Source of the DNA: an uncultured Gemmatimonadales bacterium
GTDB taxonomy: Bacteria; Gemmatimonadota; Gemmatimonadetes; Gemmatimonadales; GWC2-71-9
Direction: 5' to 3'
DNA length: 64,000 nucleotides
NCBI GenBank assembly: GCA_963795085.1
Contig: CAWCFX010000006.1
Location: 96,001 to 160,000 of the forward strand
Positions 39,785 to 48,926 of the stretch are shown here, piece by piece. Position 1 is the first letter of the stretch. Each line of letters starts with the position of its first letter. Made by a program: the position numbers and the translations under genes. A model generated the notes under the pieces. That model saw only the letters and a program-made list of their open reading frames with translations, was not told the origin of the DNA and ran no database searches.

Positions 39785-40255
39785 GTGGGCAAGGCCAGCG
39801 CCGGTGTCCTGCTCTTCCGAAGACGCGGCCCCGACCTCGAAGTCCTGCTGGTCCACCCGGGCGGTCCCTTCTGGGCCAGGAAAGACGCGGGCGCCTGGTC
39901 GATACCCAAGGGTGTGATCGAGGGGGAAGAGGATCCCGAACAGGCGGCGTTCCGGGAACTGAGGGAAGAAACCGGGTGGGACCTCGCGGGCGATCCGATC
40001 CGCCTGGAGCCGGTCCGGCAGGCCGGGGGCAAAGTGGTTCACGCCTGGGGACTGGAGACCGATGTGGATTCCTCGAGCTGCCGCAGCAACACCTTTCAGA
40101 TGGAGTGGCCGCCCCGTTCGGGCCGGCAGCAGGAGTTCCCGGAAGTGGACCGGGCCGGCTGGTTCTCGCTCAGTGAGGCCCGGGCCAGGATTCTGCCCGG
40201 CCAGATCCCGTTGCTCGACGACCTCGCCACCAGGCTCAGACATCCCCCCAAGTGA
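39785..40255 (+). CDS. NUDIX hydrolase (COG4119-like)
   Basis: LLVHPGGPFW..KD.GAWSIPKG, AFRELREETG Nudix box, EWPPRSG, FPEVDRA. Confidence 0.9.
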   Translation: MGKASAGVLLFRRRGPDLEVLLVHPGGPFWARKDAGAWSIPKGVIEGEEDPEQAAFRELREETGWDLAGDPIRLEPVRQAGGKVVHAWGLETDVDSSSCRSNTFQMEWPPRSGRQQEFPEVDRAGWFSLSEARARILPGQIPLLDDLATRLRHPPK

Positions 40256-40268
40256 GCCGCCCACCGGC

Positions 40269-41348
40269 TCAGGACCGCGGCGCCCCCTTCTTGCTGCTCT
40301 CCGAGCGAGCCTTGATAATCGCGTCCACCAGCGGGGCCTGGTCGAACCGAACCGGGTCAGTGGCCGGGAGGCCGGTGTCCCGGGCTGCCTTCTCGCAGGC
40401 CGCCCGGGCTTCCTCCTCGGTCATGTCAAAAGTGTTGAGGCAGATCCCGATCACCCGCGTGGGATGCACCGCGGAGCCGATGGCTTCGTACCAGCGGATG
40501 TAGTCGGTCAGGGGCGGGATACGGAGCCACGAGGCCTCCCGGTAATCTCCGATATACTCCCGGCTGGCCTGGTGGCAGAGGATGAGCGCGTCGGGACAGG
40601 AGCCATGCAGGAGCCCAACCGTGACGGCCGAGTAGCCGGGATGGTTGATACTCCCCTGTCCTTCGACCAGCACGATATCCGCGTTCTTGGCGCCTTCCAG
40701 GACCAGCATCTCCGCTGCCCCGTTCACGAAGTCGGAGACCACGGCATCCACCGCGATGCCCCAGCCTTCGATCATGATCCCGGTCTGGCCGGTCGCCACG
40801 AACCGGGTCCGGATGCCGCGCCGGTTCAGGTCGCTGGCCAACTGGAGCTGGGCGGTCATCTTGCCCACGTTGCAGTCGGTTCCCACCGCCGTCACCACGA
40901 ACGCGTCCACTTCTTTCGCCGCGCCGGAGGCCACCGGGATCTCCGCCGGCGGCTTTCGCAGGTCAAAGAGCCGGGTCCCCTTCTGCTCGGCCTTGGCCAC
41001 CAGCATGGGATCGTCGGTGAGGAATGTGTGCAGGCCGCTCCAGAGGTCGCACCCGGCGGCGATCGCTTCCGCCAGCCAGCCCCGCCACTTCTCGGGCAGT
41101 TTCCCGCCCGCCGGGGCGATGCCGATCAGGACCGCGGTCGGCTTCAGGGCCAGCCCTTCGGCCATGGTGGCGACCACCGGGATGGTGCCGCCGAATCCCA
41201 GGACCTGCTGGACGGTCTTGCCCGCCTGCAAGTGATCCACCACGGCCAGCGTCTGCTCGGGCCGGTAGCGGATGACCGAGTTGGCGGTCTTGGAGGTCAG
41301 CGGGCCGAAGTCGCCGTCGGCGAGAATGACGAAGCGGGGCAAGGACAT
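40269..41348 (-). CDS. DUF1611 domain-containing protein
   Basis: KTA, GIAPAGG, SGLH, VGTDCNVGKMT, ATGQTGI, VEGQGS..HP.YS.V. Start trimmed to MSLPRF. Confidence 0.9.
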   Translation of the reverse strand: MSLPRFVILADGDFGPLTSKTANSVIRYRPEQTLAVVDHLQAGKTVQQVLGFGGTIPVVATMAEGLALKPTAVLIGIAPAGGKLPEKWRGWLAEAIAAGCDLWSGLHTFLTDDPMLVAKAEQKGTRLFDLRKPPAEIPVASGAAKEVDAFVVTAVGTDCNVGKMTAQLQLASDLNRRGIRTRFVATGQTGIMIEGWGIAVDAVVSDFVNGAAEMLVLEGAKNADIVLVEGQGSINHPGYSAVTVGLLHGSCPDALILCHQASREYIGDYREASWLRIPPLTDYIRWYEAIGSAVHPTRVIGICLNTFDMTEEEARAACEKAARDTGLPATDPVRFDQAPLVDAIIKARSESSKKGAPRS

Positions 41349-41539
41349 TGAGGGAATTAGGGAATTGAGGGAATGTTGGAATTGAGGGAATGTTGGAATT
41401 GAGGGAATGTTGGAATTGAGGGAATGTTGGAATTTGAGGGAAATGTTGGAATTGAGGGAATGTTGGAATTGAGTTGAGCCTCTCAAATTCCACAATTCCC
41501 TCAATTCCCCCATTCCTTCAATTCCCTAATTCCCTCAAT
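41347..41539. repeat. Inverted tandem-repeat element: six ~17-bp GGAATTGAGGGAATGTT units bounded by a perfect 22-bp inverted repeat
   Basis: attgagggaattagggaattga (41347-41368) is the exact reverse complement of 41518-41539. Confidence 0.92.
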
Positions 41540-41540
41540 T

Positions 41541-42302
41541 CTAATCTTTCCCATCCTCCAGCAGTTCGGCATCGTGAATGGTTTCACCGCCCTTGCCGAG
41601 CTGCCGGGCCTTTTCGCCGCTGCCGGGCTTGAGGACGCCCATCTTCATTTTCAGTTCGATGAGTTGCTGGTCCGAGCTGCCCTTGTACTCCAGCGACTCG
41701 AACTGGCGGGCCAGGGCGTCGCCGGAGAACTCCTCCTGGAGTTCCGCGGCCGCGATGGCCTTGCGTTCGTTGGCTTCGATCTTCTCCGCCATGCGCTCGA
41801 ACCCTTCGAAGGCGCTCTTGTCGGAGAGCCCCGACATGGTCTCCTGGATGCGCTGCTGGGCTTCCGCCCGGCGGGCCCGGGCGACCAGGATGTTCTTCTT
41901 GCGCTTGGCCTCTTCAATCTTGTCGTTCAGCTGGCGAAGACTGTTCTTGAGGTTCTCGGTCTCCGCCTTGTGCTTGAGCCAGGTCTCATGCAGCGTCTGG
42001 GCGCCCTGCAGTGACTCGTTGTAGCGGACCAGCGCCTGCTTGGCCAGGTCGTCCCGGCCCTCCTGGACGGCAAGCATGGCGCGGCGCTCCCAGTCTTCCG
42101 CCTGTTTCTTGAGCTGCTCGGCGTCAGCCTGGAGCTTTTTCTCGTCGGCGATGGAGGAGGCAACCTGCTGCTTCGCCTTGGCCAGCTGGCCTTTCATATC
42201 GATGATCAGCTGGTTCAGCATCTTCTCGGGATTTTCCGCCCGGGAGATCAGGTCGTTGATGTTCGACCGGAGCATCGTGGACAAACGGTCAAAAATCCCC
42301 AT
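41541..42302 (-). CDS. pspA: PspA/IM30 family protein
   Basis: MGIFDRL...NDLI.RAENPEKMLNQLI.DM, W..RA..A...GRDDLAKQAL, FERM.EKI. Confidence 0.95.
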   Translation of the reverse strand: MGIFDRLSTMLRSNINDLISRAENPEKMLNQLIIDMKGQLAKAKQQVASSIADEKKLQADAEQLKKQAEDWERRAMLAVQEGRDDLAKQALVRYNESLQGAQTLHETWLKHKAETENLKNSLRQLNDKIEEAKRKKNILVARARRAEAQQRIQETMSGLSDKSAFEGFERMAEKIEANERKAIAAAELQEEFSGDALARQFESLEYKGSSDQQLIELKMKMGVLKPGSGEKARQLGKGGETIHDAELLEDGKD

Positions 42303-42304
42303 TG

Positions 42305-42700
42305 CTACTTCTCCCGGTAGGGCGCGAGGGCGCCGAGATGTGAGGCAAGCGCCAGGGTGAGGGAATCGAAGCTGGCTTCAAACTCGCTGTAGTCCAGATC
42401 TTCCAGTTCCAGGGTGTCGGTCAGGACGACATGGTCGCCTTCCAGTCCGTACGACCCGTGGACCAGGTCGCGGGCATTCAGTTCGAGCAGCTGGCGGAAC
42501 AGTTCCCCGCGGCGCGGCTCGGCCGCCGGGAGCTCCATGACGCGCACCCGCAGGATGACCACGGGAGGGGCGCAATGCACCACCACCTCGGCGTCGTGGG
42601 GCGTACGGGCAATCCAGAGGCCGGGTTCCACCTCGGTGGATTCGACCGTCCCGCTGTCAAGCCGGCCCAGGAAGGACTCAATGTCATCTCGGGTCACCAT
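42305..42700 (-). CDS. CesT/YbjN-like type III secretion chaperone-fold protein
   Basis: Acidic 131 aa; LFRQLLELNA..LVHGSYGL....VVL...LELEDLD..EF pattern. Confidence 0.8.
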   Translation of the reverse strand: MVTRDDIESFLGRLDSGTVESTEVEPGLWIARTPHDAEVVVHCAPPVVILRVRVMELPAAEPRRGELFRQLLELNARDLVHGSYGLEGDHVVLTDTLELEDLDYSEFEASFDSLTLALASHLGALAPYREK

Positions 42701-42793
42701 GTCATGTTCCCCTTTTCCAGGCCTCACGGCCCCCTGATCTGTCCCGTGGATGCTGCAATGTAATTCGTCCCGCCGGGCGCGCGCAGCGGCGGA

Positions 42794-42904
42794 TCAGCCT
42801 CCCTCGAGTGAGGGCCGGATATCCTCCCTCGGCCCCGCCAGCACCCGCTCGGCGGCGTCCACCCGTTCTTCCAGTTCCTTGACCCGTTGCTGGTCCGCCT
42901 CCCC
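42794..42904 (-). pseudogene. Eleventh array unit: coiled-coil-only remnant, in frame after the TAG of the previous gene
   Basis: GEADQQRVKELEERVDAAERVLAGPREDIRPSLEGG*; no TM segment and no start of its own at the 5' end. Confidence 0.7.
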
Positions 42905-43246
42905 CTACCCGGGCAGACGCTCGGTATTCTGCCGGCTCAGCAGCCGCTCGGTAAAATCCACCCGCTCCTCCAACTCCACGAGGCGGTCCTGCAACCCCTC
43001 GAGGTATGCCACTCGCTCCTCGACTTCGGCGACCCGATCGGGGTCCCGTGCGTGCTCCCTGGCGAGGCGGCGGAGGCCGCGTTCTCGGCGGACGCCGAGG
43101 AGGAGAACCGACCCGGCGGTAATCATCGGGTACAGCGCCGCCGGCCCGTCCGTGACTCCGACGAATCCAAGCACGCAGCCGGTTACGACCAGGTGAATGA
43201 CCAGGTCCACCGGATCGAAACCCATCAGCCGCTTAAAGGCCGTCAA
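42905..43246 (-). CDS. Array paralog 10: two-TM protein with coiled-coil tail
   Basis: GFDPVDLVIH, two TMs, ELEERVDFTERLL. Confidence 0.88.
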   Translation of the reverse strand: MTAFKRLMGFDPVDLVIHLVVTGCVLGFVGVTDGPAALYPMITAGSVLLLGVRRERGLRRLAREHARDPDRVAEVEERVAYLEGLQDRLVELEERVDFTERLLSRQNTERLPG

Positions 43247-43527
43247 TGTGCGTCTCTCTGAACCATGGGAACGGACTTCTCCCGGGCCAACAGCCGCTCG
43301 GCAAAGTCCAGTCGCTCTTCTACCTCCTCCAGGCGGGCCTCCGCCTGCTCCGCTCCCAGCAGCCGCCGTTCGAGATCCTCCACCCGCTGGACCAGGTCGG
43401 GATCGGCCCGGCCGGTGCCTTCGAGCCGGCGGCCCAGGGCCCGTCCGATCGGCCCCCGGAGGACCAGGACGACCGAACCCGCCACGATGAGCATCGCGAG
43501 GAGCGGACCAGCGACTTCAGGATTCAC
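43243..43527 (-). CDS. Array paralog 9: one-TM protein with coiled-coil tail
   Basis: TM, GPIGRALGRRLEG, EVEERLDFAERLL. Confidence 0.88.
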   Translation of the reverse strand: MNPEVAGPLLAMLIVAGSVVLVLRGPIGRALGRRLEGTGRADPDLVQRVEDLERRLLGAEQAEARLEEVEERLDFAERLLAREKSVPMVQRDAH

Positions 43528-43811
43528 CGGCTGGCTCCCTGGTCAAGTCCGCCCGCATCGTCCCTGCCCTGGACCAGCAGCCGTTCCGAGAAATCCATGC
43601 GTTCCTCCACCTCGTTCACCCGCGCGTGCAACTGCTCCAACTCGGCGATGCGACTCCGCAGGTCTTCCAGTTCCCGAATGGTGTCGGGGGTGACGGTCTT
43701 TCCCTCCAACCGGCGTTGAAATACCCGAACCCCCACAAAACCGGCATAGAAGAGGAGGGGAAATCCCATCATCATGATGACCGCTATCGCGACCTTGAGG
43801 AGGTCATCCAT
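43524..43811 (-). CDS. Array paralog 8: one-TM protein with coiled-coil tail
   Basis: TM, RRLEG, EVEERMDFSERLL. Confidence 0.88.
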   Translation of the reverse strand: MDDLLKVAIAVIMMMGFPLLFYAGFVGVRVFQRRLEGKTVTPDTIRELEDLRSRIAELEQLHARVNEVEERMDFSERLLVQGRDDAGGLDQGASR

Positions 43812-44095
43812 CAGCGCAGTTGCTCCGGTTCCCGCTGGGCCAGCATCCGCTCAGTGAAGTCGAGCCGCTCCTCCAGTTCGGCCAGCCGGGCCGCCGGAAC
43901 CCCCTCGGCCGGGGTGCGCTGGAGCAGCGCCTCCAGCTCGGCCACCCGGTTCTCCAGGTCCACCATCCGCCGGGGTGCGCCGCCCGCTTTCGATTCGATC
44001 CAGCGGCCAACCGCCCTGGCAATGGGCCCGAAGAAGATGCCCACCATCGTGAGGCCGATAGCGCCGTACATGGCAAATTCACCGAGCTCGCTCAT
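43811..44095 (-). CDS. Array paralog 7: one-TM protein with coiled-coil tail
   Basis: TM, GPIARAVGRWIE, ELEERLDFTERML. Confidence 0.88.
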   Translation of the reverse strand: MSELGEFAMYGAIGLTMVGIFFGPIARAVGRWIESKAGGAPRRMVDLENRVAELEALLQRTPAEGVPAARLAELEERLDFTERMLAQREPEQLR

Positions 44096-44445
44096 CGGGG
44101 CTCCTCGATTCGGTCGGGGCGCCCCTGGGCCAGCAGGCGCTCGGCGAAATCCACCCGTTCTTCCAGTTCATAGATGCGCTGCTGAGCCGCTTCCAGGTCG
44201 GCAACCCGGTGCTCCAGGTCCAGGTTGTACTCCCCGGATGGCGCGGCCGGCGATCCCAGTGCTCCCCGCTTCCGGGCCCAGTGCCGGCGCCATGCCAGGA
44301 CCCCCAGGGACCCCGCGAACACGGCCCCGATCATCATGTCTTCGTGTTGCCGATTGATACTGGAGAGGACCACGGCAATGCACATGGTGATCCCGGCCTG
44401 AATCAGGAAATCCACTCCGTCAATGCCCAGCCAACGTTGGATCAT
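44092..44445 (-). CDS. Array paralog 6: two-TM protein with coiled-coil tail
   Basis: Start trimmed to MIQRWLGIDGVDFLIQ; ELEERVDFAERLL. Confidence 0.88.
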   Translation of the reverse strand: MIQRWLGIDGVDFLIQAGITMCIAVVLSSINRQHEDMMIGAVFAGSLGVLAWRRHWARKRGALGSPAAPSGEYNLDLEHRVADLEAAQQRIYELEERVDFAERLLAQGRPDRIEEPR

Positions 44446-44762
44446 CGCGGCGCCCTCGTGGCTTCGTCCCGGGCCAGCACCCGCTCCGTGAAATCCAGGC
44501 GCTCCTCGAGTTCGACGATGCGACCCTGCCGGTCCTCGAGCCTGCTGACACGGTCGTGAAGGACCGTCTGCTCCATCCCGGAGGACGGTCTTCCCCTCGA
44601 TCTGATGCGGCGGGCAAAGGCCCGCCCCACCGGCCAGCACAGCACCAGCACTCCGGCCATGACGGACAGCACTATCAGCGCCGCCACTGCGGGCGGCAGG
44701 TGGGGGCCGGGAAAGAGCCAGATCACCGGATCCGGCGGTACGGGCGCCTGGAGAGTGATCAT
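44442..44762 (-). CDS. Array paralog 5: Pro-rich N-terminus, one TM, coiled-coil tail
   Basis: LQAPVPPDP, WPVGRAFARRI, ELEERLDFTERVL. Confidence 0.88.
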   Translation of the reverse strand: MITLQAPVPPDPVIWLFPGPHLPPAVAALIVLSVMAGVLVLCWPVGRAFARRIRSRGRPSSGMEQTVLHDRVSRLEDRQGRIVELEERLDFTERVLARDEATRAPR

Positions 44763-45115
44763 CTTCCCTCCTCTAACTTCTCCGCCTCGCGAACCCGGGT
44801 GAGCAGGCGCTCGGCAAAGTCCAGCCGCTCCTCGAGCTCCAGGATCCGCTGCTGTCCTGCCTCCAGCTCCGCGATCCGGTCGTCAAGTTCCTCGACGCGT
44901 TCGGCGGGGAGGGCGACGGTCTCCTCCGCGGCCAGGGCCCGGGTACGCCGCCAGGCCAGGAGCGCCAGCGAGGAGGCGAACACGCCGGACATCAGCATGT
45001 CTTCAACCCGTCCCTCGCTGGCCTCGGAGAGCAGGGCGGCGACCCCCAGGGTCACCAGCACATGCACGGCAACGTCAAAGAGATCCATCCCGAACAGTTT
45101 CCAGCGGGTCTTCAC
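44759..45115 (-). CDS. Array paralog 4: two-TM protein with coiled-coil tail
   Basis: GMDLFDVAVH, LAWRR, ELEERLDFAERLL. Confidence 0.88.
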   Translation of the reverse strand: MKTRWKLFGMDLFDVAVHVLVTLGVAALLSEASEGRVEDMLMSGVFASSLALLAWRRTRALAAEETVALPAERVEELDDRIAELEAGQQRILELEERLDFAERLLTRVREAEKLEEGR

Positions 45116-45480
45116 GGGCCGATCTCCCGGGGTTCCGCCTTGCGGGCCAGTAGCCGCTCGGCAAAGTCCATTCGTTCTTCCAATTCATTCATTCGGCCCT
45201 GGTGTGCCTCGAGGTCAGCCACCCGGGTTCGCAGGTGGTCGAGTTCCTCCAGTACCGCCGGGTCCTGCCCTCTGCCCTCGATGCGCCGGGCGATCGCCCG
45301 AACCAGGGGCCAGAGAATTACCACCGCGCCGGCGACGACACCCAGAACAATGAGCACGAAGACGGGCGCCGGCAGCACTTCCCATGGCGCGGGTGTTCCA
45401 TGGGGGAAGGGAGGAAACTGCTGGACCAGGACCTGGTCCGGCGACGGGGGCGCGGGAGGCGCCACTTGCAGGAGGGTCAT
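45112..45480 (-). CDS. Array paralog 3: Pro-rich N-terminus, one TM, coiled-coil tail
   Basis: LQVAPPAPPSPD, WPLVRAIARRIEG, ELEERMDFAERLL. Confidence 0.88.
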   Translation of the reverse strand: MTLLQVAPPAPPSPDQVLVQQFPPFPHGTPAPWEVLPAPVFVLIVLGVVAGAVVILWPLVRAIARRIEGRGQDPAVLEELDHLRTRVADLEAHQGRMNELEERMDFAERLLARKAEPREIGP

Positions 45481-45728
45481 GATCCCTTTCCGATCTCGCC
45501 CGGCTCGCGGCCCTGGGCCAGTAGCCGTTCAGCGAAGTCCATTCGTTCGTGCAGGTCGCTCAATTCTCGACGCAATTGGTCCAGTTCTTCGTAGATCACC
45601 GGGTCGGGGACGGGGGCGGCGTGCTTCCCCCGCAAACGGTCGGCGACGGCTCGCCCGACCGGACTGAAGGACAGCGCGGTCAGCGTGCCGCCGCCGAAAA
45701 TGAGCAAGATCGCAAGGATGTCTTCCAT
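45477..45728 (-). CDS. Array paralog 2: one-TM protein with coiled-coil tail
   Basis: SPVGRAVADRLRG, DLHERMDFAERLL. Confidence 0.88.
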   Translation of the reverse strand: MEDILAILLIFGGGTLTALSFSPVGRAVADRLRGKHAAPVPDPVIYEELDQLRRELSDLHERMDFAERLLAQGREPGEIGKGS

Positions 45729-45732
45729 TCCT

Positions 45733-46020
45733 TTACTCTCCGGAGAGCGGGGTGGCCGGCCGAGGGCGGCTCAGCATCCGCTCGGCAAAATCAAGGCGCT
45801 CCTGGGCTTCTCCCAGCTGGCGCTGCAGCTCATCAACCTGTTCCCGGAGAAAGCCCAGCTCGGCGCGGAAATCCTCCTCGGCCTCGCCGCTGGTGCCCTG
45901 GATCCTGCGGCCCAGCGCGATTCCGACCGGGCTGTGCATGATGCGCACAACGCCGAAGATGATGCCCCCGGTAATCAGGACCCCGGTGATCATCCCGAAG
46001 ATCGGAATCAGTTCTCCCAT
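45733..46020 (-). CDS. Array paralog 1: one-TM protein with coiled-coil tail
   Basis: Start trimmed to MGELIPIFG; SPVGIALGRRIQG, EAQERLDFAERML. Confidence 0.88.
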   Translation of the reverse strand: MGELIPIFGMITGVLITGGIIFGVVRIMHSPVGIALGRRIQGTSGEAEEDFRAELGFLREQVDELQRQLGEAQERLDFAERMLSRPRPATPLSGE

Positions 46021-46065
46021 GTCGGTTCCGTTCAGTGGTGCGGGTGCAGCCCATCCACGAGGGTG

Positions 46066-46092
46066 TACGGGATGGTGTTCCACAATGTTTCA
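46066..46092 (-). promoter_or_regulatory. Putative ECF sigma (sigmaW-type) promoter
   Basis: Minus strand TGAAAC-N17-CGTA, 45 bp upstream of the first array ATG. Confidence 0.6.
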
Positions 46093-46146
46093 AGTCGGAA
46101 CACCTCAAGGGCGGCCACCGATGCCAAGGTGTTGGCCGCCAGCATG

Positions 46147-46365
46147 TTAGGACACGATTTCAACCGACTGGATCGCCGCCAGCGAAACGGCGATCTCAGT
46201 TTCTTCGGCTCCGGCCGGTCGGAGGAATACCTCATGCGCCGCCATCTCGGGGTCAACGCTGGTGGGCACGCCGACGACTTGAAGGTTTCCGGTTGTCCGG
46301 ATGCGCACGGCCTGCTCATGATCGCCGGCGTATCCCAGTAGAGATACGATCTGGTCGTATTCCAT
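46147..46365 (-). CDS. Small hypothetical protein (72 aa, possible Sm/SH3-like fold)
   Basis: MEYDQIVSLL...AVRIRT...VVG...VD...VFL...VSLAAIQSVEIV; gggga RBS. Confidence 0.65.
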   Translation of the reverse strand: MEYDQIVSLLGYAGDHEQAVRIRTTGNLQVVGVPTSVDPEMAAHEVFLRPAGAEETEIAVSLAAIQSVEIVS

Positions 46366-46446
46366 GGAATCCCCCACGGAAAAAGGGTTGCCTGCGCTTT
46401 CGGCAGAGGATGATCCTTTAACATGCGGCAATGACTCCCCGAACGC

Positions 46447-46475
46447 AAAACCGCCCCCGGGGTCTCCGGAGGCGG
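46447..46475 (-). terminator. Intrinsic terminator after the S9 peptidase
   Basis: Minus strand ccgcctccgg-agacc-ccgggggcgg-tttt. Confidence 0.7.
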
Positions 46476-46493
46476 CCTGGGCCGGCCGTGCCG

Positions 46494-48767
46494 TCAGGTG
46501 GCCGGCCGGGGCTTGGGGTTCATGAGGTGGTCGTTCAGATAGTTGGTAATGAGGGTGAACAGGTGCAGCCGGGTATTGCCCCCGAAGATCCCGTGGTTGC
46601 GGTTGGGATACTCCATCAGGGCGAATTGCTTGTTGGCGGTAACCAGCGAGTTCACCAGCGCCTGGCTGTTCTGGAAGTGCACGTTATCATCGCCGGACCC
46701 GTGCACCAGGAGCAGGTCTCCCCGAAGCTGGTTCACGTAGCTCAGGGGCGAACCCTTGTCGTATCCCTCCCGGTTTTCCTGGGGGAGACCGTTATACCGC
46801 TCGGTGTAGATGTTATCGTAGTATTTCCAGTGCGTTACCGGCGCGACGGCCACGGCGGTCCGGTACACTTCGCCGTGCTGGAAGAGCGTGTTCAGGCTCA
46901 TGAATCCGCCATAGCTCCAGCCCCAGATGCCCATCCGGGTGGAATCCACGTAGGGCCACCGCCCGATGGCCCGGGCCGCAGCGGCCTGGTCCCGGGTTTC
47001 GACCACGCCCATCTGGCCGTAGATGATCTTCCGCCAATCCCGACCCCGCGCGCCGGTCCCCCGGTTATCGACGCTGGCCACGAGGTACCCCTGCTGGGTC
47101 AGGAGCAGAAACCAGAGATACTGGCTGCCCCCCCAGGAGTCGAGCACCGTCTGGGACCCCGGTCCCCCGTACACGAAGAAGAGAATGGGATACTTCCGCG
47201 CCGGGTCGAACCCCGGGGGCTTCATGATCCAGCCGTTGAGGGCAACACCGTCCTCCACCGGCACCTGGAAGAACTCCCGCGGTCCCTCCTTGAGCACCGC
47301 GACCCGTGACCGCAGCCGGGCGTTCTCGACCACGGTGCGCGCCACCGCGTGGGTCGGCAACTGGACCAGCGCGGTGACCGGGGGAACCCCCATGCGGGAG
47401 TGGGTGTGGAAGGCCCATTGAAAATTGGGCGCGACGTTGTAGCTGTTGGAGCCAGGCTGATCCGCCGGGGTCAACCGCTCCGGGCGTCCCCGGCCGTCCA
47501 GCCTGGCGCGGAAGAGGTATCGCTGGGCCGGGTTGTCGGGTGAGGCGACAAAGTAGACAAAGCCGCCCTTTTCATCGATGCCTTGCACGCTGATGACATC
47601 GTATGCGCCGGGCGTCACCAGTTTCACGTCACGTCCGTCCCGGGATACCACGTAAACATGGTTCCAGCCATCGCGTTCGCTGACCCAGGTAAACCGCTGG
47701 CCCCCGTCCAGCCATTCCATGTCGTCGACCACTTCGACCCAGGCCTGGTCCTTTTCCGTGAGAATGGTCCGTACCTGCCCGGTGGCGGCGTCCCCCAGCA
47801 TGAGGTCGAGGGTGTTCTGCAGCCGGTTGAGCCGCTGGACATGGACCTCCCGGGAATTGGCGGCCCAGTCCATCCGGGCGGGATAGTTGTTCCGCGGGTC
47901 GCCCGGCAGCGCCAGCCACTGGGTACCGCCTCCCTTGATGCTGACGATTCCGATCCGGGCCGCCGAGTTGCTCTCGCCGGCCTTGGGATACTGGACCGGC
48001 ACCACGTTGGCGTAAAGCGAGTCGGTGTCGTTGATGAGATTGAAATCGCGGACGCTGTCCGCGTTCAGTTGCCAGTAGGCGATAGACTGGCCGTCCGGGC
48101 TCCAGCGCCAGCCATCCTGGAGACCCAGCTCTTCTTCATAGACCCAGTCGAAGGTGCCGTTGATGATGGTCCGCGAGCCGTTATCGGTGAGCTGGGTGAT
48201 CCGGCCGTCGGTCAGGTCCTCGACGTAGAGATTGTTCTCCCGGACATAGGCGACTTTCCGGCCATCCGGGGAAAACTTCGCGAACATCAGCGTGCTGGGG
48301 CGGGCTGCCGGGCCACCAAGCTTCCGAAGCTGCCAGCTGGTGCGGTTGAGGATCCAGTAATCGCCCCGGGTGTTGGTCCGCCACACCGGTCGCGAGTTGG
48401 TGTAGATCAACACCGCACCCAGGTCGGGAGACCAGCGGTAGTTCTCGACCGCCAGGGGTACCGAGTCGCCTCCGGGCTGGAATCGGGCTGCCGGGATCAA
48501 CACCTCGCGGGCGCCCGAGCGGGTCTCATAGCGCACCAGGTCCCGGCCCCGGCCTTCGGCGGGCCGCTCCAGCGTCGTGTAGGCCGCCCCGTCGTTCATC
48601 CACCGAATGGGACCGAACGTTTCGGACTGAAAATCCTGGGAGGCATGGACCCGGTGCAGGGTCAACAGGCTGGAATCCGCAGCCGGCGTCTGGGCATCAG
48701 CGGCGGATCCGGCGAGAACGCCCAGGGCAACGAGCAAGACAGCGCGGGGACGGAAAGACACGGGCAT
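46494..48767 (-). CDS. Dipeptidyl peptidase IV (S9B family), secreted
   Basis: Signal peptide; DWVYEEE, YPKAG, GWSYGG, HGSGDDNVHFQN, C-terminal H. Confidence 0.95.
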   Translation of the reverse strand: MPVSFRPRAVLLVALGVLAGSAADAQTPAADSSLLTLHRVHASQDFQSETFGPIRWMNDGAAYTTLERPAEGRGRDLVRYETRSGAREVLIPAARFQPGGDSVPLAVENYRWSPDLGAVLIYTNSRPVWRTNTRGDYWILNRTSWQLRKLGGPAARPSTLMFAKFSPDGRKVAYVRENNLYVEDLTDGRITQLTDNGSRTIINGTFDWVYEEELGLQDGWRWSPDGQSIAYWQLNADSVRDFNLINDTDSLYANVVPVQYPKAGESNSAARIGIVSIKGGGTQWLALPGDPRNNYPARMDWAANSREVHVQRLNRLQNTLDLMLGDAATGQVRTILTEKDQAWVEVVDDMEWLDGGQRFTWVSERDGWNHVYVVSRDGRDVKLVTPGAYDVISVQGIDEKGGFVYFVASPDNPAQRYLFRARLDGRGRPERLTPADQPGSNSYNVAPNFQWAFHTHSRMGVPPVTALVQLPTHAVARTVVENARLRSRVAVLKEGPREFFQVPVEDGVALNGWIMKPPGFDPARKYPILFFVYGGPGSQTVLDSWGGSQYLWFLLLTQQGYLVASVDNRGTGARGRDWRKIIYGQMGVVETRDQAAAARAIGRWPYVDSTRMGIWGWSYGGFMSLNTLFQHGEVYRTAVAVAPVTHWKYYDNIYTERYNGLPQENREGYDKGSPLSYVNQLRGDLLLVHGSGDDNVHFQNSQALVNSLVTANKQFALMEYPNRNHGIFGGNTRLHLFTLITNYLNDHLMNPKPRPAT

Positions 48768-48926
48768 GACCTGGTTAGGGGATCGAGGGCAAATACGAAC
48801 TGCGCAGAGTGGAAGTTACAGGGAGAACCGCGGGGTCGCCACGGCATCGCTGACTGGGTGTGGGCAAGGTACGTGCATCAATCTTGCCTTCCGCTGCGGT
48901 TCTTTGGCTATGTCTCGGCGCCGCCG

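Follow-up and report, generated by a model that had tools for sequence, protein, structure and literature searches.

PspA, IM30 and Vipp1 are bacterial relatives of ESCRT-III, and PspA is a membrane-repair protein. To our knowledge, the recruitment of PspA-type proteins to damaged membrane is understood for only a few model organisms. In LiaI-LiaH and PspB/C, small membrane proteins encoded together with a PspA homologue anchor it or serve as a signalling unit (PMC9239133), and in the enterobacterial model PspB and PspC are described as signalling units and not simply as a dock (PMC9239133). Small membrane partners known for PspA homologues include LiaI, PspB/C and PspM (PMC9239133, PMC11237479), and the dyad of a CesT/Tir gene with pspA has been described as a conserved core (Ravi et al. 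2024, PMC11237479). Here we describe a tandem array of ten genes for small membrane proteins that precedes a CesT-like gene and pspA in DNA of an uncultured soil bacterium of the Gemmatimonadales (GTDB lineage GWC2-71-9). The stretch analysed, referred to as the window, comprises 64,000 nucleotides (nt), positions 96,001 to 160,000 of contig CAWCFX010000006.1 in assembly GCA_963795085.1, and all coordinates without a contig label are positions within it.

Judged from their sequences, the array genes constitute an unnamed Gemmatimonadota family of small, predicted inner-membrane proteins. They are probably lineage-specific partners of PspA rather than relatives of PspB. On a more specific reading, which we regard as evenly balanced, stress induces these proteins to act at the membrane as partners or anchors of PspA, their membrane ends varying while the cytoplasmic tip stays constant.

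The ten-gene array and its constant C-terminal box

The minus strand from 42905 to 46020 carries ten consecutive open reading frames (ORFs) of 83-122 amino acids (aa) each. Coordinates, alignment and a structural model confirm the original prediction that their products combine membrane helices, a basic juxtamembrane helix and a long C-terminal helix. Gene 1 (45733-46020; 95 aa from ATG; profile E 2.9e-26) encodes a protein with a single membrane helix, N-out, and gene 2 (45477-45728; 83 aa), also with a single membrane helix, belongs to the largest cross-genus orthogroup (14 loci). Genes 3 (45112-45480; 122 aa) and 5 (44442-44762; 106 aa) each specify a proline-rich N-terminal tail, predicted outside for gene 3, followed by one membrane helix. 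Two membrane helices are found in the products of genes 4 (44759-45115; 118 aa), 6 (44092-44445; 117 aa from the ATG at 44445) and 10 (42905-43246; 113 aa, with a TTG start). Gene 7 (43811-44095; 94 aa) has a 10-residue insert within its coiled coil, and the array is completed by gene 8 (43524-43811; 95 aa) and gene 9 (43243-43527; 94 aa), the product of which was modelled.

Topology read from the charges by the positive-inside rule places the coiled coil in the cytoplasm in all ten proteins. Seven are predicted to be single-pass and N-out with an acidic or proline-rich N-terminus, and genes 4, 6 and 10 to form two-helix hairpins. The AlphaFold2 model of the gene 9 product, built from a 140-sequence alignment, reached a mean predicted local distance difference test score (pLDDT) of 90.2. 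In it, residues 3-24 form a membrane helix and residues 26-35 a short juxtamembrane helix, from which a linker leads to a long helix (43-85) and a disordered tail.

Within the ten-copy alignment the E, R, D, F, E, R and L of the C-terminal tail ER.DF.ER.L, hereafter the box, are invariant, while identity to the first copy is just 23-38% overall. The predicted divergence of the membrane ends against a constant C-terminal helix is supported. Searched against the whole genome, the array profile recovers the ten genes with E-values of 9e-19 to 4e-34, far beyond chance. As first noted from the sequence, neighbouring genes overlap at eight of the nine junctions, and a 4-nt gap, located between genes 1 and 2, forms the ninth. 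The overlap measures 4 nt at seven junctions (ATGA, GTGA or TTGA) and 1 nt at the other (TGATG). Purine-rich runs resembling Shine-Dalgarno sequences are visible by eye before several starts, within the 3′ end of the preceding gene. The proposal that the genes form one operon-like unit is supported.

Directly after gene 10, and in frame with it beyond its TAG stop, lies an eleventh unit (42794-42904, minus strand; profile E 1.8e-5). This is the remnant that had been counted among the sequences sharing the tail. The remnant itself is real, yet it is decayed: it is without a start codon, and its tail has degraded to ERVDAAERVL, the invariant F being gone.

Conservation was assessed on 181 copies from 31 pspA-linked arrays, the set also used for the tree. 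The F of the box is kept in 180 copies, E80 and R81 in all 181, R75 in 180 and D77 in 166. Because orthogroups in the tree span 14, 10, 9 and 9 loci, and because sister pairs from the same locus number only six, all of them long-branched, the paralogues are old and individually kept. The tree places their origin before that of the genera, with gains, losses and remnants since. Ratios of nonsynonymous to synonymous substitution (dN/dS; Nei-Gojobori) for 58 same-genus reciprocal-best pairs have a median of 0.28 and a maximum of 0.69, values that are rough since many dS values of array genes lie near 1; the five closest pairs, with dS of 0.27-0.70, give 0-0.30. A median of 0.28 indicates purifying selection on the array units, and the corresponding median for pspA in the same 12 locus pairs is 0.097.

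Linkage to pspA and a promoter-like motif

On the minus strand the array is followed by a gene for a CesT/Tir-like (YbjN-like) chaperone-fold protein (42305-42727; PF22550, E 6.4e-26), which likely starts at the ATG at 42700, as in its relatives, and then, after a 2-nt gap, by pspA (41541-42302). The latter encodes a 253-aa protein of the PspA/IM30 family (PF04012, E 1.3e-46) that also matches TIGR02977 with E 9e-40, under the equivalog cut-off. With a gene of the CesT/Tir superfamily right before one for PspA_IM30, both read from one strand, the locus has the order that defines a CesT/Tir-PspA dyad. The genome also holds a second, divergent PspA/IM30-family gene at G000:C4:294363-295004, which scores 36 bits, just above the Pfam cut-off.

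The array profile matches more than 6,400 proteins in a metagenome-scale database, none of them with a Pfam domain. Among the best 80 loci in species genomes, 79 come from metagenome-assembled genomes of Gemmatimonadota, Gemmatimonadales or Gemmatimonadaceae, and one is labelled Miltoncostaeaceae. Several matches are present in every one of the 125 genomes of the organism's own family among 301 sampled across the phylum. This tally and those given below for the CesT-like gene and the single-copy profile include the unpublished genomes G057, G097, G157 and G182, on none of which the locus-level claims rest.

Gene order was examined in 20-kb regions fetched around the arrays. All 30 main arrays examined in relatives, like that of the window, lie directly upstream of pspA, with 2-12 copies each, and the survey of copy number and linkage thus bears out the expectation of tight linkage to pspA. 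In the organism's own family this holds for 18/18 arrays from at least ten genera, with the CesT-like gene in between in 17, and both arrays of a second family, f3, show the same order with the CesT-like gene between. A genome-wide search did not find the CesT-like gene in 53 of the 125 own-family genomes, all of which have arrays, and its absence is consistent by genus. At ten own-family loci lacking it, each from a different genus, the array adjoins pspA in every case; F, E80 and R81 are kept in 51/51 copies from these loci, and the box is as conserved there as elsewhere. The locus labelled Miltoncostaeaceae (L159, 2432-5205) has at least seven copies followed by pspA. It lies on a 1.5-Mb contig titled as belonging to that actinobacterial family, which points either to an issue of labelling or binning or to a gene family extending outside Gemmatimonadota.

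Elsewhere in the class, the dyad of CesT-like gene and pspA occurs in 56/69 genomes of family f2, 6/6 of f4, 22/23 of f6, 45/47 of f7 and 4/4 of f8. At 12 loci of other families chosen by their CesT match, pspA comes next in all 12. A large ABC-type ORF that by eye resembles uvrA stands before the dyad in three of the loci from f7, f4 and f2. Four of the 12 loci (in f5, f6 and f8) contain a single gene of 89-101 aa whose end meets or overlaps the beginning of the CesT-like gene. Its product combines a single membrane helix with a coiled coil and carries the tail EEQxF[ML]TxLL. Aligned with hhalign, the single-copy and array alignments match with a probability of 93.2% (E 3e-7) over 68 columns. 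The best match to the single-copy profile adjoins the CesT-like match in 23 genomes, 19 of f6, three of f8 and one of f5, as judged by eye from the coordinates. The simplest history that would account for these sequences is an ancestral triad of small membrane gene, CesT-like gene and pspA, in which the first gene multiplied within the window's lineage and the CesT-like gene was later lost from part of that lineage.

Upstream of gene 1, at 46066-46092 on the minus strand and 45 nt before the ATG, lies the sequence TGAAAC-N17-CGTA, which resembles a promoter of the extracytoplasmic function (ECF) sigma type. In 18/31 loci the 300 nt ahead of the first array gene contain the pattern TGAAAC-N15-18-CGT[AT], against about 0.006 expected per such interval, and the 7-mer TGAAACA occurs upstream of that gene in 21/31 loci against 0.8 expected. 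The pattern corresponds to the sigma-W-type consensus of ECF sigma factors, TGAAAC-N16-CGTA. With two elements at the right spacing and conservation in relatives, the motif is a candidate ECF-sigma-dependent promoter. Its [TG]GAAAC form also stands before the first gene of the module in 5/12 non-array loci of other families: before the single small gene in f6 and f8, and before the CesT-like gene in f7 and f4. An alternative form, GGAAC-N15-18-CGT, was rejected in favour of TGAAAC, being present in just 2/31 loci, and a sigma-70 scan of 40200-48900 gave no promoter-like site. The conserved promoter-like motif at 46066-46092 makes the ATG at 46020, and not the GTG at 46083, the most likely start of gene 1. 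Across the whole genome and both strands TGAAAC-N15-18-CGT[AT] has 33 matches, a possible list of an ECF-sigma regulon.

At the other end, the pspA stop is followed at once by a 17-nt repeat, present as two inverted arrays (7.4 and 3.3 copies) that form a long hairpin at 41347-41541, between pspA and a DUF1611 gene. Its folding energy is -82.65 kcal/mol (z -9.1), and none of 200 shuffles was as stable; the hairpin is likely the 3′ end of the transcription unit. A terminator scan of 40200-48900 returned three terminator-like sites, fewer than in shuffles. The DUF1611 gene that follows was called as a long ORF starting at 41513, and because this call runs across the repeats, the true start is probably the ATG near 41346. 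Upstream of the array are a 94-aa ORF (46147-46431), with no Pfam or NCBIfam match, and an S9 peptidase gene. The 94-aa ORF is a conserved upstream neighbour of the array in 17/18 own-family loci, and several relatives have about 1.7 kb of other sequence between the two.

Proposed role and competing explanations

We propose that the array, the CesT-like gene and pspA would be co-transcribed from the ECF-sigma-type promoter, that is, under envelope stress. Anchored by their N-termini in one membrane, the proteins may pair in parallel as coiled coils, and each coiled coil would then act as a stalk of about 40 residues with one common patch, charged and aromatic, at its tip. The near-invariant box, E-x-x-E-R-x-D-F-x-E-R-x-L over 13 residues, occupies the membrane-distal end of the coiled coil. 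In our reading of the last heptads, L72, [LVM]76, [ATS]79 and L83 form the core, so that D77 and F78 point outward, with E74, R75, E80 and R81 to either side. The tip patch may recruit or dock PspA or regulate its assembly, the membrane ends, being diversified, would assign every paralogue a separate location in the membrane or a separate cue, and the CesT-like protein would be an optional helper. PspA rather than the CesT-like protein is favoured as the partner because the box is invariant where the CesT-like gene is missing and because array and pspA stay together in every one of the 30 related loci examined; that the usual partners PspB and PspC were not found in the genome also argues for PspA. 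We entertain, as a possible but doubtful extension, that the array is a combinatorial adaptor set of up to a dozen anciently diverged membrane antennae, each tuned to its own site or type of damage and all bearing one tip patch that nucleates or positions the PspA polymer, with the same tag on unrelated membrane proteins, the TM2-domain and PadR-linked ones, also calling PspA. If so, it would have a counterpart in eukaryotes, where numerous adaptors bring ESCRT-III to different membranes.

The original prediction took the array for an expanded set of PspB-like sensors or adaptors while knowing of no characterised system with its layout. The latter part stands, as Pfam, NCBIfam, PDB, PADLOC and PHROGs yielded no characterised family. 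For none of the ten array proteins did Pfam, NCBIfam, PADLOC or PDB yield a meaningful family match: PADLOC gave 0 matches for 12 proteins, the PDB sequence profile search only coiled-coil noise, and PHROGs only matches of unknown function (E 0.0015-0.0087). No LiaI/LiaF-type family is among the Pfam or NCBIfam matches at E<=1, and the PspM model NF047839 matches gene 6 alone, at 16 bits against a cut-off of 80. Descent from PspB is not supported. That the genes are true, very remote and multiplied PspB homologues, controlling PspA as a signalling unit without PspC, seems to us improbable. Their linkage to pspA would suit such an origin, as would the build of seven of the ten copies, one N-terminal membrane helix followed by a short cytoplasmic helix; this build, defined at about 75 aa, is, however, generic, three copies have two helices, and lengths range over 83-122 aa. 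The PspB model TIGR02976 scores 10.3-14.4 bits in 7/10 copies (E 0.035-0.66; cut-off 51.7), always on the C-terminal helix, but it also gives sub-threshold matches at E<=1 in 13 of 14 control genomes, and its best score in the whole genome is 17 bits, so that no pspB lies above the cut-off. PF06667, the Pfam model of PspB, matches none of the ten proteins at E<=1. An hhalign comparison of the array alignment with 15 enterobacterial PspB sequences gave a probability of 1.6% over 5 columns, the PspB alignment being shallow (close sequences, 84-92% identical to the first). The box is not a PspB motif either, and the genome (3.89 Mb, 93.4% complete) has no match to the pspC model PF04024 at E<=0.01, whereas the control search found PF04024 in 7/14 genomes. 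In the ESM Atlas the nearest clusters are unnamed Gemmatimonadota proteins (0.93-0.94); the nearest named cluster is PspB at 0.78, which is below the meaningful level of that tool and serves as a lead only. Filing the array genes as PspB was rejected on the family-model and profile-profile results.

Other explanations give the box, or the neighbourhood, a different meaning. We think it unlikely that the box determines oligomerisation instead of docking, in which case the paralogues and the dispersed members would build homo- or hetero-oligomeric coiled coils and so a membrane scaffold, co-induced with PspA by envelope stress and acting independently of it. The helix is long and heptad-like, the hits of the PDB profile search are all coiled coils (best E 0.044), box proteins are also encoded far from pspA, and R75-[LVM]-D-F-[ATS]-E80 fits by eye the pattern R-h-x-x-h-E. 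This we take to be a trimerisation pattern of coiled coils, in which Arg and Glu five residues apart flank two core positions. The invariant D77 and F78, however, face outward in the heptad register, and an exposed invariant aromatic is more typical of a partner-binding surface; the two ideas overlap in part and both could hold. A role of the tail as a client signal, by which the CesT-like chaperone would hold or deliver the small proteins with PspA merely a neighbour, finds little credence with us. It draws on the position of the CesT-like gene between array and pspA in 17 of 18 own-family and both f3 loci, and on the binding of client peptide segments by CesT-fold proteins (PMC11237479). Yet 53 of the 125 own-family genomes have arrays and no CesT-like match, the CesT-less lineages retain both the box residues and the adjacency of array and pspA, and many families that have no small gene next to it still possess the dyad of CesT-like gene and pspA. 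It is, lastly, very improbable that the array adjoins pspA through inherited synteny alone, with no tie of function, and that these are general Gemmatimonadota membrane proteins with another role. Dispersed copies do have unrelated neighbours, and the evidence is all comparative and from related genomes; against this, the linkage outlasted loss of the CesT-like gene, gains and losses of copies and changes of flanking genes, it holds for the single-copy homologue in three other families, and the array has a shared promoter-like motif upstream and stop/start overlaps throughout.

Several observations weigh against a dedicated partnership with PspA. The genomes compared are kin, and 30/30 may reflect one or a few ancient events followed by inheritance. 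Uneven constraint speaks for the partnership, with membrane-segment identity at 0.48 within and 0.21 between orthogroups and box identity at 0.79 and 0.72; as the orthogroups were defined from the same alignment, however, it is the difference from one region to the other that counts, and not the raw step from within to between. In its strict form the promoter motif went undetected in 13/31 array loci, among them 9/10 CesT-less loci (L084-L092). At the f7, f4 and f2 loci the CesT-like-pspA dyad has no small gene adjacent, so PspA needs no small partner next door. Moreover, the ER.DF.ER.L tail recurs in this genome in five dispersed genes, attached there to other membrane anchors: C6:412872-413102 (L073), C6:62737-62886 (L074), C1:1348285-1348449 (L075), C2:460685-460816 (L076) and C2:527-730 (L077). 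Three-gene tandem arrays in G049 (L061, contig C72, 9246-10278) and G059 (L094, contig C9, 10242-11047) are more than 9 kb from any pspA, and singleton box copies, the neighbours of which share no feature, occur in f2, f4, f6 and f7. Because the box is also found away from pspA, it need not be specific to PspA.

As to the dispersed copies themselves, one of the five is a TM2-domain protein (PF05154, E 1.3e-19) and one starts 2 nt after a gene for a PadR-family regulator; an analysis of their neighbours revealed no common theme. The L061 array sits between genes for a tricorn-like protease and a sodium:solute symporter. A search for longer fused forms returned three proteins, none with a Pfam domain, and thus no informative domain fusion; by eye, two resemble array genes that are mis-framed or run together, and the box occurs once in the third. 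The top profile match in the metagenome database, P0001 (209 aa), contains a gene-2-like and a gene-3-like unit in one frame. Two-unit database proteins of this kind may be either real fusions or the result of lost stop codons.

Comparison with known PspA partner systems

Our literature searches, which included PMC11237479 and PMC9239133 as far as these were available to us, gave no description of this family, of the box or of the array expansion. The word fragment 'Gemmatimonad' is absent from the main text and one supplement of PMC11237479, the other supplements of which could list such neighbourhoods. The idea of a small membrane partner for PspA is not new, and the lineage is known mainly from uncultured soil genomes. 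What the comparison adds is that a whole bacterial order without PspB and PspC carries instead an unnamed family with thousands of metagenome members. Its variable membrane part beside a fixed 13-residue tip could offer, as a short peptide motif, a handle on PspA recruitment, and if the proposed role is true, the family would be a new class of partner for the Psp/ESCRT-III field.

The dyad at the end of the unit is shared with the described core, where a CesT-like gene (here PF22550) is likewise immediately upstream of pspA (PMC11237479). Described CesT/Tir-PspA operons add genes for band-7/flotillin proteins, AAA+ ATPases, YqiJ/YuaF, spermine-synthase-like or ATP-grasp proteins, and none of the larger operons in the part of that source available to us adds an array of small coiled-coil membrane proteins (PMC11237479).

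PspB of the proteobacterial pspABC operon resembles the array proteins in being small and bitopic, with an N-terminal membrane helix and a cytoplasmic helix, and in belonging to a pspA operon and to envelope stress. It is encoded downstream of pspA in one or two copies and acts together with PspC under the control of sigma-54 and PspF, whereas the array lies upstream of pspA in 2-12 copies. The array moreover has no detectable homology to PspB, an ECF-type motif, a different box and two membrane helices in three of the ten proteins. PspM (Rv2743c, NF047839), encoded in the mycobacterial clgR-pspA-pspM-pspN cluster, is, as proposed here for the array proteins, a lineage-specific integral membrane partner of PspA that takes the place of PspB and PspC; unlike the array, it is a single gene downstream of pspA.

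The closest functional analogy to the role proposed for the array is LiaI-LiaH of Bacillus subtilis. LiaI is encoded by one gene only and has no long coiled coil. It is under two-component control, whereas the array has an ECF-type promoter-like motif, and the array proteins have no LiaI-type Pfam match at E<=1. LiaI is nonetheless a small membrane protein encoded directly upstream of a PspA homologue, induced by stress and serving as its anchor (PMC9239133), which is the function that we propose, in a multiplied and diversified form, for the array.

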